Source: Escherichia phage Greed. From it: a DNA stretch of 60,042 nt. Shown one piece after another: positions 9,946 through 54,557 of this stretch (position 1 is the first letter of the stretch; each line of letters starts with the position of its first letter). The position numbers and the translations under genes were made by a program. The notes under the pieces were generated by a model, which saw only the letters and a list, made by a program, of their open reading frames with translations, was not told the DNA's origin and did not search any database. The DNA lies in the sequence record KX534337. One strand, given 5' to 3'.

Positions 9946-9988
9946 TCCTAGGCTCCCGCAGAAGCCCGTTGGTTGATGTGGTTATAGA

Positions 9989-10648
9989 TTATGCGTCCAG
10001 TCCGTTGTATTTGCGCCAAGCGTAGAACTGAATGGCGACCGTTGTCCCGTTGTAAGAAGGCATTGCAGCTTTCATTTCTTTCAGCTCCGGCGTGCGGCCA
10101 AGTTCAGCTAAAAGTTTGTCGCCCATTGCCCACACTTCGGCGGTTTTTCCTTTCAGAGGCTTGCGAGCGCCATTTTTGAAATCACAGCGAGCAGCTTTTG
10201 CATCCTGTTTTGGCGCGGCAGCTTTTGGCTCTTCAATTTTGATTTCAGAAACCTGCGTGGCAGCTTTTGCATGTTTCATATCTTTCTCTTCCTCCTGCTC
10301 CAGAGCTTCGAGGCAGCTTTTGACAATTTCCGGATTTACCATCGGGCGCAGTACCGAGACGCTGGCAGCTGGCGCGGCGGTCGGTGCCGGTACTTTCTGC
10401 TCCGGCTGCTGCGCTTTTTTATGGTCGCGCAGCACCTGAAGCACTTCCTTCTCGACGATGTAAAAACCGATCTCGTCCTGATGGATTAACTGTTCGTGTG
10501 CGTCGCGTGCAACCTGGCCCCAGCGAGTTTTGAGGGCGCGGCGTGCATTGGTCTTCATGGTGTAACGCATTTTGTCCTGTTCGCGGTGAGTTACTTTAGA
10601 CATGGTATAGCTCCTTTCGTTAATATTAGTTTGCTTATTACTGCCCAC
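9989..10648 (-). CDS. Ala/Lys/Glu-rich protein with conserved C-terminal domain (paralog of 53058..53885)
   Basis: 219 aa (alternative start at 10603); central KAAAP-rich low-complexity region; C-terminus VWAMGDKLLAELG...YAWRKYNGL aligns with AWALMDQISATLG...YARWKKFNGV of 53058..53885. Confidence 0.5.
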   Translation of the reverse strand: MGSNKQTNINERSYTMSKVTHREQDKMRYTMKTNARRALKTRWGQVARDAHEQLIHQDEIGFYIVEKEVLQVLRDHKKAQQPEQKVPAPTAAPAASVSVLRPMVNPEIVKSCLEALEQEEEKDMKHAKAATQVSEIKIEEPKAAAPKQDAKAARCDFKNGARKPLKGKTAEVWAMGDKLLAELGRTPELKEMKAAMPSYNGTTVAIQFYAWRKYNGLDA

Positions 10649-52028: not shown

Positions 52029-52281
52029 TTCTTTTCACCTTCACTAATGTTTGTTTATAATCCATACCTTCAAGGTCAACTTCTGCCATTTCACAAAAGT
52101 TATCATCTTCCCAGTATGATGTCCATTTAGTTTCACTGTCCATCAACGTTGGCTCATACTCGAATCCGTAAACTGTACCGTCTTGATCCGTAGCCAGCCA
52201 CCGTACCCATTCAGGGACATCAAGCTTATTACCAAAGTATTCAACTTCTTTAGTATGCACAACCTGACTTAACACACGCAT
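51982..52281 (-). CDS. Hypothetical protein (99 aa), paralog of 13633..13935
   Basis: Shares PEW...DxDG...EVDLEGMD...TL with the plus-strand gene at 13633. Confidence 0.45.
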   Translation of the reverse strand: MRVLSQVVHTKEVEYFGNKLDVPEWVRWLATDQDGTVYGFEYEPTLMDSETKWTSYWEDDNFCEMAEVDLEGMDYKQTLVKVKRNDHFGRSETASGNDH

Positions 52282-52988
52282 TATTCCACCCCGATATATT
52301 TGTGAACCTGAAGCTGCAACGTGTAACCGTGTTTCATACAGCTTTGGACAACGGCTTGGATATTGCTGTGGTTAAGGTCTTCATCCTGCTCGTCCATTGG
52401 CTGTAAATATATCTTACCCTTGAAACCCTTCGGAGGTCTAGCGATAAATGGCGTAGCCTGATGATCTAATGCTTGAAGAGGTAAACCATCTTCCACGTTT
52501 ACACAGCACGCTTTAAGTACATATTTAAATGCATTAGCGCGGTGCAGCACAGAAGGATGAATCTTTGAGGTCTTGGGACTACATACAATTACAGGTAACT
52601 GGGAAAAGTTCTTAGGTAAAGGCATAGACCCATTAGTTTCAATTTGCACCAAATAGCCGCGCGATAACAGTTGTTCAATAAACGGGTTAATTTGCTGACG
52701 GAACGGTTCACCCCCAGTGATAACCACAAGTGAGGTGCTATTGCCTGATTCCAGCTTACGGCTTTCGATTAAACGCATAATATCGACAATATGATAAAGA
52801 CTACGACCAACAGTATAATCGGTATCACAGCCAGGGCATTGCAGATTACACCCAGCAAGACGCACAAATACAGCAGGTTGGCCGCAGAATGGACCTTCAC
52901 CCTGAATGGTAGAGAATACCGAATGCACGTCTAAATACATATCGTTTTCTTTAGAACGGGACTCGGGAGCTTGTTGATTAATATTCAT
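52281..52988 (-). CDS. queE: 7-carboxy-7-deazaguanine synthase (radical SAM)
   Basis: 235 aa; TIQGEGPFCGQPAVFVRLAGCNLQCPGCDTDY contains the radical-SAM Cx3Cx2C-type cluster and QueE-like N-terminus. Confidence 0.8.
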   Translation of the reverse strand: MNINQQAPESRSKENDMYLDVHSVFSTIQGEGPFCGQPAVFVRLAGCNLQCPGCDTDYTVGRSLYHIVDIMRLIESRKLESGNSTSLVVITGGEPFRQQINPFIEQLLSRGYLVQIETNGSMPLPKNFSQLPVIVCSPKTSKIHPSVLHRANAFKYVLKACCVNVEDGLPLQALDHQATPFIARPPKGFKGKIYLQPMDEQDEDLNHSNIQAVVQSCMKHGYTLQLQVHKYIGVE

Positions 52989-53057
52989 CTTAAATCCTCT
53001 AGTGAAAAAGAAAGCGCCTCATTGGGCGCTTTCATTATAACGTGATATGTTTTGATA

Positions 53058-53885
53058 TTACAAGCCGTTCAGGGCTTCCGGTACTGGCATAGGTACGCGA
53101 CCAGTTACACCATTAAACTTCTTCCAACGTGCATACTGAGTTTTAACGGTATCTTCGTTCAGACCGTGACGACCTGCTAGATTCAGAACATAAGAGATTG
53201 GAGCAGGCTGACCCAGCGTAGCGCTAATCTGATCCATCAGGGCCCAGGCACGACCGCAGGAAGTTTCAGGTTGCGGACGACGAACACCATTCTGTTCAGG
53301 CATACGGTTCGCTTCTTTCGCTTTTTCACGTTCAGCTTTTTCGCGGGCTTTTTCAGCAGCCTTTTCAGCCTGTTTAGCAGCGCGGATCTTGTCTTTGAAG
53401 CCTTTGATAGACGAATCCAGTTCGTCAACCATGCTCTGAGCAGCAGTTACTGCACCGGACAGATCTTCACCTTTGGATTTTTTAACAACTGCTTTCAGCT
53501 CTTTCAGAGCATTCTTTAAATGCTTCAGCTGTTCAGAACCCTTAGATTCTGCTTCCGTGATCTGATCAACAGTGCTTTCATCGGTAATACCGGATAAAGC
53601 AAACTTCACGGTTTCAACTACCTGGGAAAGAGCGGTAAATTTATTTTCAGCTTCAGTACGAATTTCAGCTTGTTTCTTTTCAGCGGCAGCTTTTTTCTCT
53701 GCTTCTTTTTTCTCTTTTGCTACGCGTGCAGCTTCAGCGGCAGCGGCTTTTTTAGCTTCTGCGTCGTTAGCAGTAGCTTCTTTCTTTGCAGGCTTAGCAG
53801 ATTTTGCAGCGGCAGCAGCGGCTGCGGCAGCAGCGGCTGCGGCAGCAGCGGCTTTCTTATCTTCAATATTACTCATTTTCTTCAC
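53058..53885 (-). CDS. Ala/Lys/Glu-rich histone-like protein with poly-Ala tract and conserved C-terminal domain (paralog of 9989..10648)
   Basis: 275 aa; 19-residue poly-Ala run, KAAAE-type repeats, C-terminal domain aligning with 9989..10648. Confidence 0.5.
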   Translation of the reverse strand: MKKMSNIEDKKAAAAAAAAAAAAAAAAKSAKPAKKEATANDAEAKKAAAAEAARVAKEKKEAEKKAAAEKKQAEIRTEAENKFTALSQVVETVKFALSGITDESTVDQITEAESKGSEQLKHLKNALKELKAVVKKSKGEDLSGAVTAAQSMVDELDSSIKGFKDKIRAAKQAEKAAEKAREKAEREKAKEANRMPEQNGVRRPQPETSCGRAWALMDQISATLGQPAPISYVLNLAGRHGLNEDTVKTQYARWKKFNGVTGRVPMPVPEALNGL

Positions 53886-54003: not shown

Positions 54004-54498
54004 TTAGCTCTTCGCACCTCTGCCCGGTGTCCATGCTGCTTGCAATGCGGGTTGCTCACAAATGACCCTGGCACCGGAAATAATACCACCCTCCCGTTCA
54101 GCATCGTATTTGACACGGGCAGGTTTCCAAAGTCCTTCATCCATTGACGGTACATATTGCCCAAGTTGAGGCGAGCAAAAGCCCTGGATATCATATTCCA
54201 CACAGAATTCGGCTTGTGCGCTAATTTGGGCGTGATCCAGGAGTGTTTCTGGAAGTTGCGTAAAGTAATCAGACAAAATGCGCTCAACGATTTCCCGTTC
54301 ATAAGGTGCAGCTCCTAAATTTTCTGTCAAGTTAATATAAAGCATTTGAAGATCAACATCTTCAAGATCGTGTAAATCGTCTACTGGTGTTACCAGTGTT
54401 GACTCCGGACAACAAATAATTCCAAGTTGGTGTAGTGTCAGCCAATTGGGATGCTTTGCCAAGAGTTCAAATTTATCTGTATCAATTAGGACGTACAT
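54004..54498 (-). CDS. Hypothetical protein (164 aa)
   Basis: Acidic ORF; no motif. Confidence 0.45.
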   Translation of the reverse strand: MYVLIDTDKFELLAKHPNWLTLHQLGIICCPESTLVTPVDDLHDLEDVDLQMLYINLTENLGAAPYEREIVERILSDYFTQLPETLLDHAQISAQAEFCVEYDIQGFCSPQLGQYVPSMDEGLWKPARVKYDAEREGGIISGARVICEQPALQAAWTPGRGAKS

Positions 54499-54557
54499 TG
54501 CAATCCCCTATAAATAAGTAATGCCCCAATAGTAGGGGCATTAGATGTTGAAGTCAA

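Follow-up and report, generated by a model that had tools for sequence, protein, structure and literature searches.

The 60,042-nucleotide stretch of Escherichia phage Greed (KX534337) analyzed here, referred to below as the window, is a Seuratvirus-type genome of the subfamily Queuovirinae. This study concerns two of its minus-strand open reading frames (ORFs), 53058..53885 (gene A) and 9989..10648 (gene B), which a sequence-only reading had described as paralogous, Ala/Lys/Glu-rich, histone-like proteins with a common C-terminal domain. The genome is ~97% identical to SLUR25 and CAjan, and the region around both ORFs is 92 to 98% identical to SLUR25, Seurat, CAjan, and slur01. The ORFs exist on that strand and at those coordinates, but their true starts lie downstream of the GTG codons from which they had been read. 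In gene A, the Shine-Dalgarno sequence GGAG (53888-53885) overlaps the GTG at 53885 and stands 8 nt ahead of the ATG at 53876, and the CAjan ortholog is annotated as starting MSNIEDKK. In gene B, AAGGAG (10616-10611) precedes the ATG at 10603, and the alignment to phrog_22313 begins at residue 16. The positions of the ribosome-binding sites (RBSs), taken with the CAjan annotation for A and the phrog_22313 alignment for B, indicate that the GTG starts are mechanical and that the real products have 272 and 204 amino acids. A and B are real coding ORFs by these signals, and the ATG codons are their likely starts (Table 1).

In the PHROG collection, phrog_11298 matches A at E=1.4e-120 and phrog_22313 matches B at E=1.7e-143. 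A third profile, phrog_21588, is common to both (A, 8.6e-8; B, 7.4e-7), and all three carry the label "unknown function." The CAjan ortholog of B, AJT60553, is annotated as hypothetical. That of A, AJT60531, is labeled "transcriptional activator FtrA domain-containing protein," and some GenBank records have "outer capsid protein"; both labels were rejected, since no profile supports either.

Table 1. Positions of the features discussed in the text
Feature	Position in window	Strand	Description
Gene A	53058..53876	-	272 aa from ATG 53876; stop codon 53058-53060; phrog_11298; ortholog of CAjan AJT60531
Gene A, N-terminal low-complexity segment	53661..53876	-	Residues 1-72; Ala/Lys/Glu-rich by composition, with poly-Ala16 tract
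Gene A, tandem repeat	53809..53853	.	Perfect 15-nt x3, GCGGCAGCAGCGGCT on + strand; encodes poly-Ala; Tandem Repeats Finder score 90, 100% matches
Gene A, central region	53307..53660	-	Residues 73-160 of ordinary composition, conserved in enterobacterial relatives; residues 161-190 Ala/Lys/Glu-rich
Gene A, C-terminal domain	53088..53306	-	About residues 191-263; beta-hairpin QNGVRRP plus three helices (predicted); invariant N, P, W, W; from alignments, AlphaFold2, hidden Markov model
Gene B	9989..10603	-	204 aa from ATG 10603; phrog_22313; early-region paralog with "NARRA" module, Pro/Ala/Glu/Lys linker, domain
Gene B, "NARRA" module	10409-10603		N-terminal module
Gene B, C-terminal domain	9992..10189	-	About residues 139-204; subtype EFY/QFY-x-W-R-K-[FY]-N-G; from AlphaFold2, non-circular hidden Markov model
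ORF164	54004..54498	-	phrog_7864; conserved upstream neighbor of A; matches profile positions 1-163 of 242; no domain copy
Intrinsic terminator	53010..53033	-	Directly 3' of A, between A and queE; 9-bp stem, 6 GC pairs, TTTTT
queE	52281-52988	-	Downstream of A

Homology and predicted fold of the C-terminal domains

Alignment of the two C-termini, one of the checks proposed for the shared segment, gave 30% identity over 69 amino acids (BLASTP, E=2e-6). In a phmmer search over the 664 six-frame ORFs of the window, each C-terminus was the sole significant match of the other (E~3e-6; next match, E>0.6). To exclude circularity, a hidden Markov model (HMM) was built from 76 A-type domains of other phages, with the window, Seuratvirus, and 9g left out; it detected B at E=1e-12, and the next window ORF scored E=2.5. 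No third copy of the domain was found in the window with phmmer over the six-frame ORFs, the family HMM, or the non-circular HMM. The motifs listed for the segment (NG-x-R-x-P, W-A-x-x-D, LG, and Y-A-x-W-K-K/Y-x-NG) all occur in both proteins. These comparisons bear out the proposed paralogy and indicate that the C-termini of A and B are homologous.

Structure prediction, the other check proposed, gave the two domains one topology. AlphaFold2 models built with family alignments reached a predicted local distance difference test score of ~90 in the core of the A domain and 94 to 98 in the B domain, and in both a short beta-hairpin formed by N-G-x-R-R/K-P is followed by three helices. The invariant or nearly invariant positions are the N, G, R, and P of the hairpin, a W and a D in helix 1, G-x-N before helix 3, and Y-x-x-W-R/K-K-F-x-G in helix 3. 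The mean net charge of the domain envelope is +5, with a positive value in 94% of 237 copies, and the hairpin and helix 3 hold the conserved basic residues. The family HMM matches the A domain at E=4.8e-37. The B domain belongs to a subtype common to 9g gp37, PaMx25 gp45, and the relative P0084. A sequence search of the PDB with the family profile returned only a match to the hairpin motif of eL29, which was not significant (E=0.86). The hairpin QNGIRRPKP resembles the rRNA-contacting N-terminal RNGIKKPK of eukaryotic eL29 (PDB 9i1w chain Lb), a likeness that probably reflects convergence of a basic nucleic-acid-binding peptide.

The remainder of each protein was examined by composition. Residues 1 to 72 of A are 81% Ala, Lys, and Glu (16 Lys plus Arg versus 11 Asp plus Glu; isoelectric point [pI] 9.56), and residues 161 to 190 are 77%; in the central region, Pfam and PADLOC returned no more than weak matches of coiled-coil type. 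In B, an N-terminal module of a different kind is followed by a linker with 47% of these residues and a pI of 5.8. The statement that both proteins carry a long K/A/E-rich region is thus correct for A and incorrect for B. The comparison with histone H1 did not hold for either: the A tract, with the charges given above and without K/A/P repeats, is nearly balanced and not H1-like, and B barely has such a tract. The charge-balanced region of A probably forms a stable helix, and it resembles in composition KfrA tails, TolA domain II, or single alpha-helices. Its poly-Ala tract has 16 residues in the window, 11 in CAjan and slur01, and 10 or 8 in others (CAjan and the loci L010 to L012 were compared), indicating an in-frame slippage polymorphism in steps of five codons.

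The N-terminal module of B is a recurrent element of ~45 amino acids, x-Y-T-x-(K/R)-S/T-N-A-R-R-A-x-K ... h-h-x-x-D/E-G-x-F, which precedes the domain in different lineages. Besides B, it is carried by 9g gp37 (L007 2234-2713), the genes at L005 1481-2101 and L019 6158-6856, and the relatives P0084, P0099, and P0100, and a Cys4 zinc ribbon sometimes lies between it and the domain. This "NARRA" module has no Pfam match, and a search with the copy in B returned only close relatives of one Zoogloea-type element. The long helix that AlphaFold2 places at the N terminus of B is unreliable, since the alignment is shallow.

Family size and domain architectures

An exhaustive search with the family HMM recovered at least 2,595 cluster representatives (50% identity) at E<=1e-3, of which 1,330 remained at <=1e-10. 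By tblastn of a phage collection, the domain was present in 151 phage records, mostly of phages of Proteobacteria and many with two or three copies; among the organisms named, the hosts were Gram-negative (proteobacterial). A word-indexed homolog search gave three matches, and an alignment search gave only proteins of 146 amino acids or fewer without Pfam domains.

The low-complexity content of A is the single feature that would suggest that the similarity is due to chance or that the ORFs are non-coding. Against this stand the reciprocal, non-circular homology, the strong RBSs, the PHROG matches (E of 1e-120 and 1e-143), the in-frame poly-Ala polymorphism, the conservation across genera in at least 2,595 representatives, and the high codon adaptation described below. 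Insofar as sequence analysis can refute an explanation, this one is refuted, and we regard its probability as negligible.

Across the family, low-complexity sequence occurs on either side of the domain. Genuinely H1-like K/A/P tails are found in the relatives P0077 ("KKAAVKKAPAKKAAAKKA"), P0002, and P0093, and tandem arrays of two or three domains are found in P0095 and P0098. Two large relatives, P0108 (932 aa) and P0156 (665 aa), are MuF/SPP1-gp7 minor-head proteins in which two domain copies flank a zincin-like HExxH region, and P0108 alone has an additional C-terminal ADP-ribosyltransferase toxin domain. These fused proteins are presumably packaged and injected as "polyvalent" proteins, of which DNA-binding domains are a recognized component (PMC5512222).

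Upstream of queE in PaMx25, pVco-14, and many IMG/VR relatives, the domain closes each of two or three genes in a row. These are a B-subtype gene, which has either a SAP/Rho_N-like N terminus (sub-threshold) or the "NARRA" module of B, with or without a Cys4 zinc ribbon; an ORF164-type gene (phrog_7864), with a divergent domain copy; and an A-type gene. In Seuratvirus and 9g, the B-type gene lies instead in the early region, near divergent promoters. A divergent copy of the A/B domain stands at the C terminus of the ORF164 relatives in PaMx25, pVco-14, ART, and many IMG/VR loci, and the Seuratvirus protein therefore appears to have lost it. In P0112 and P0169, an ORF164-like N terminus is merged with an A-like protein.

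The B-type member P0084 is encoded in an integrated element of ~9 kb in Zoogloea sp. (JAKLLN010000005.1; L090 5900-14900). Its other genes encode an integrase, an AAA_25/primase-polymerase-like protein, an HTH_31 repressor, and a DUF5681 protein, and the element resembles a phage satellite or a small integrative element.

Genomic setting and the modification cluster

The sequence-only reading had placed A at the head of the modification cluster and B next to the divergent control region. The first placement was not upheld. An intrinsic terminator separates A from queE, and in PaMx25 a terminator is annotated in the equivalent position between its A-type gene and queE. When the spacers of 75 related loci were scanned for a hairpin with a T tail, 38 had a terminator-like structure versus 0.4 expected from shuffled sequences, and the stem sequences differed between loci. 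Gene A would consequently close the upstream replication/recombination unit and not lead the modification operon. As for B, it is indeed near the divergent control region but not adjacent to it, since ~600 nt and two small genes lie between.

Two promoter-like elements were noted on the minus strand. TTGTAA-N18-TATAAT (53034-53063) ends 1 nt before the terminator that follows A, so that a transcript from it would not include the 5' hairpin arm. TTGACT-N17-TACTAT (54519-54557) has its -10 element inside the loop of the terminator upstream of the ORF164-A unit. If these putative promoters are used, the overlap may allow queE and ORF164 transcripts to start while read-through stops. At the 3' end of B, the CAjan genome has an HNH homing endonuclease gene directly downstream of the ortholog, with a 14-nt overlap (L002 3716-4198). 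This gene is absent from the window at ~9946-9990, so that in some Seuratviruses homing endonucleases appear to insert at the 3' end of B.

Among 73 informative IMG/VR loci, 71 had an A-type gene followed by QueE within 1 kb downstream on the same strand, over a range in which QueE identity falls to ~45%. In the same loci, an ORF164-like gene lies just upstream of the A-type gene and a helicase gene lies 1 to 2.5 kb upstream. The order helicase, ORF164-like, A-like, queE also is seen in 9g, PaMx25, pVco-14, PSASB_03 (a 42-kb phage), ART (a 95-kb phage), and, approximately, RHEph05. Publications on the cluster report its genes as arranged queE-queC-queD-folE-dpdA and do not account for the A-type neighbor; papers on CAjan, 9g, iggy, Vid5, and MMDA13 do not mention a function for the A gene.

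This linkage, the genomes of 42 and 95 kb included, could suggest that A-type proteins, in large amounts, coat or read phage DNA with 7-deazaguanine modification, in analogy to SPO1 TF1 on hmU-DNA, or that they help DpdA by presenting DNA to it. That the A ortholog of Vid5 adjoins a preQ0 transporter gene, and that the A-type gene is unexplained in the que literature, are consistent with such a role. The terminator before queE speaks against it, as does the equally conserved helicase/ORF164 synteny on the upstream side, by which block inheritance would explain the proximity to queE. Members of the family also occur without nearby que genes: P0084 in its integrase/primase element; P0092, which opens an early cluster and has no que gene within 10 kb; and an A-like gene (L088) that has a thymidylate synthase gene nearby but neither que genes nor a helicase gene as neighbors. 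The Gram-negative (proteobacterial) phage hosts among the organisms named by tblastn count against it as well. Co-occurrence is therefore not obligatory, the domain does not appear to be strictly tied to 7-deazaguanine modification, and we consider a role linked to the modification improbable. If it were true, the domain would be a new module that targets A, B, ORF164-type, and MuF effectors to phage DNA and not to host DNA.

Possible roles and comparison with known proteins

Codon usage was compared over the 91 ORFs of the window by the codon adaptation index (CAI), using E. coli weights after Sharp & Li 1987, a ranking whose sole sanity check is that the head and scaffolding genes come out on top. 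Gene A ranked second (0.542), with the major head protein (0.561) above it and the scaffolding protein (0.476) below, and is the best codon-adapted non-structural gene of the phage. B ranked 7th, queE 40th, and ORF164, although adjacent to A, 81st (0.203; median, 0.286). Such a high index argues against a rare regulator and for a protein that would be abundant and stoichiometric. The suggestion of a DNA-packaging factor found no support. In the virion proteome of Vid5, determined by liquid chromatography-tandem mass spectrometry, 11 virion proteins were reported, and the main text of that study does not mention the A ortholog, gp42.

We tentatively propose, at somewhat less than an even chance, that A and B, both constructed around a novel helix-turn-helix (HTH)-like domain, bind nucleic acid, with A an abundant, KfrA-like architectural protein and B its early paralog. 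Both would belong to a multi-gene phage set that shares a small basic HTH-like domain of ~70 residues, in which a hairpin (NG-x-R-R/K-P) is predicted to be followed by three helices, the last with Y-A-R-W-R/K-K-F-x-G. The domain would have a polyanion as its ligand, most probably nucleic acid (DNA), and no strong preference as to sequence. In A it would be joined to a long, largely alpha-helical Ala/Lys/Glu-rich region, giving a KfrA-like head and tail in reversed order. The protein would be made in near-structural amounts from the last gene of the replication/recombination unit, just before queE-queC-queD-folE-dpdA, and this amount and position suggest a protein that serves phage DNA as an architectural element or scaffold as the DNA is replicated and modified. 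B would join the domain to a different N-terminal effector or targeting module and be expressed from the early divergent region. A nucleoid-like, nucleic-acid-associated role, as had been envisaged, is the most plausible one in view of the predicted HTH-like fold, the charge of +5, the SAP-like, zinc-ribbon, and H1-like partners, and the CAI of A.

Several observations weigh against this proposal. The CAI ranking behind the inferred abundance has the provisional basis given above, and the composition of the A/K/E region of A is not that of an H1-like protein. Helix 3 is the most conserved element of the domain across all paralogs, which a common invariant partner would explain equally well. 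The chief caveat is a canonical Sec signal peptide or lipobox present in ~5% of orthologs (~12 of 232 family representatives; e.g., MNKSLTLGAALTAIALAMPARA followed by FDGE); the proteins with such sequences are P0072, P0075, P0101, P0106, P0109, P0128, P0134, P0142, P0162, P0165, P0186, P0187, and P0197. A signal also is present on Rhizobium phage RHEph05 gp57 (L006 2905-3507), whose annotated start is preceded by a good RBS, and on one A-type gene in 80 IMG/VR loci (L064), 121 nt upstream of queE. These signals imply that the proteins would be exported to the periplasm in those phages, which sits awkwardly with intracellular DNA binding.

The conservation of helix 3 raises the possibility that the domain is a docking module that brings varied N-terminal modules (the A/K/E helix, the "NARRA" module, SAP-like, zinc-ribbon, and ORF164-type modules, and MuF effectors) to one invariant partner, for instance a conserved protein of the host or a component of replisome or recombination from the neighboring helicase/exonuclease module. 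Consistent with this, the two or three consecutive genes per phage that end in the domain have unrelated N termini, and they are tightly syntenic with helicase and recombination genes. Several of the best structural matches (RPA32C, the MCM C-terminal winged helix, the cullin winged-helix B domain, and Nse1) are protein-binding winged helices. The family, however, also occurs in the 9-kb integrative element and in phages without the helicase/que module, for which a docking partner would have to be very widely conserved, and the uniform, strong positive charge and the H1-like, SAP-like, and zinc-ribbon partners fit nucleic acid better. We consider docking rather unlikely but the next most probable explanation.

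The signal-bearing proteins raise a further possibility, that the TolA-like helix of A-type proteins carries the basic domain to a polyanion or protein of the envelope (e.g., in superinfection exclusion or DNA entry); this explanation also holds that the versions without a signal reach the envelope in another way. In its favor, the domains of signal-bearing A-type proteins are nearly identical to those of signal-less orthologs, and the RBS of the RHEph05 gene is good. In JGI annotation, several members bear the name "membrane protein involved in colicin uptake" (a TolA-like composition), and the domain is found in MuF polyvalent proteins, which are ejected through the envelope. More than 90% of A orthologs, A included, have no hydrophobic N terminus, however. 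A itself has no signal peptide and no hydrophobic segment above a Kyte-Doolittle value of 1.8, the score of its poly-Ala tract, and all-Ala cores reportedly do not export in signal-peptide work from the Kendall laboratory. B-type relatives have Cys4 zinc ribbons and SAP-like motifs, features characteristic of nucleic-acid binders in the cytoplasm, and gene A lies in a replication/modification module and not in a lysis or host-interaction module. An envelope function is unlikely on this balance.

In all, the finding is real and non-trivial, though no more than moderately surprising, namely, an unnamed, widespread phage domain with a plausible but putative DNA-binding role. The domain has no relative in Pfam, NCBIfam, or the PDB, yet it is present in at least 2,595 clusters, with several genes to a genome among Queuovirinae and related phages, and in injected MuF/toxin proteins. 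The A-type gene is an unnoticed, almost invariant neighbor of the 7-deazaguanine modification cluster. Defining the binding target would name a large "dark" phage family and explain the exported variants, and possibly would reveal how phages organize or mark hypermodified DNA. If a helical tail with a generic DNA-binding head is all there is, the gain would be a modest one in annotation.

Scans with Pfam, NCBIfam, and PADLOC gave nothing above threshold for A or B, and those of A, B, ORF164, and 70 relatives gave mainly compositional (Mitofilin, Baculo_PEP_C) or sub-threshold matches. Neither protein matched a histone-like or nucleoid-associated protein family in Pfam or NCBIfam. Proteins with H1-like K/A/P tails (AlgP, Hc1, or Hlp type) are similar in having Ala/Lys-rich low-complexity sequence on a putative DNA binder, but the A tract contains many Glu and Asp residues and B lacks such a region. 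TolA (COG3064) domain II and ER-K single alpha-helices resemble A only in the composition of its N-terminal and pre-domain segments; A is without a membrane anchor, and the lack of a TolA Pfam match indicates that it also is without the C-terminal domain of TolA.

HNH_repeat (PF18780) matched one domain copy of the relative P0156 with 27.1 bits (cut-off, 26) and was found at E<0.1 in 1 of the 70 family members scanned; B scored 14.4 bits (E=0.049), under the 26-bit cut-off, and A gave no match. The two are alike in being short three-helix units with the spacing LGR-x-P-T ... S/T ... W. They differ in that the domain described here has no association with an HNH nuclease, and its hairpin motif and Y-A-R-W-R-K-F helix are specific to the A/B family. 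A functional analogy can be drawn with phi29 p16.7 and SPO1 TF1, although no sequence or fold relationship to A was detected. These are abundant, early, non-virion phage DNA-organizing proteins with a small helical DNA-binding domain, joined to a coiled coil in p16.7, and TF1 prefers modified phage DNA (hmU-DNA in SPO1).

The closest comparison is with the KfrA proteins of IncP and IncU plasmids. KfrA_N (PF11740) had no match in A or B in Pfam, and PaMx25 gp45 was the sole relative with a match (14.9 bits; cut-off, 26.1). With hhalign, the family profile aligned to the KfrA head over 42 to 44 columns in a consistent register (probability, 7 to 21%; E=0.005 to 0.001), against a KfrA profile that is shallow (Neff 2.2) because the contig scan from which it was built, seeded with R751 KfrA, yielded mostly near-identical IncP copies. 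No solved KfrA-like structure was found. We take the HNH_repeat, KfrA_N, and hhalign matches as leads to HTH-type DNA binders and not as family membership. KfrA proteins have a DNA-binding head and a long coiled-coil tail (PMC7821693), and the likeness lies in a small helical head on a long, Ala-rich tail that in A would be alpha-helical and in the pattern helix, G-x-x-P-T, helix, S/N-x-x-T, helix with W-R/K. KfrA is encoded in a plasmid partition region, whereas the A/B family here is encoded in a lytic phage, and the A/B family has an additional beta-hairpin, NG-x-RRP, N-terminal to the helices. The head of A is C-terminal, unlike the N-terminal head of KfrA, but in some A/B relatives the tail is C-terminal to the domain, as it is in KfrA.

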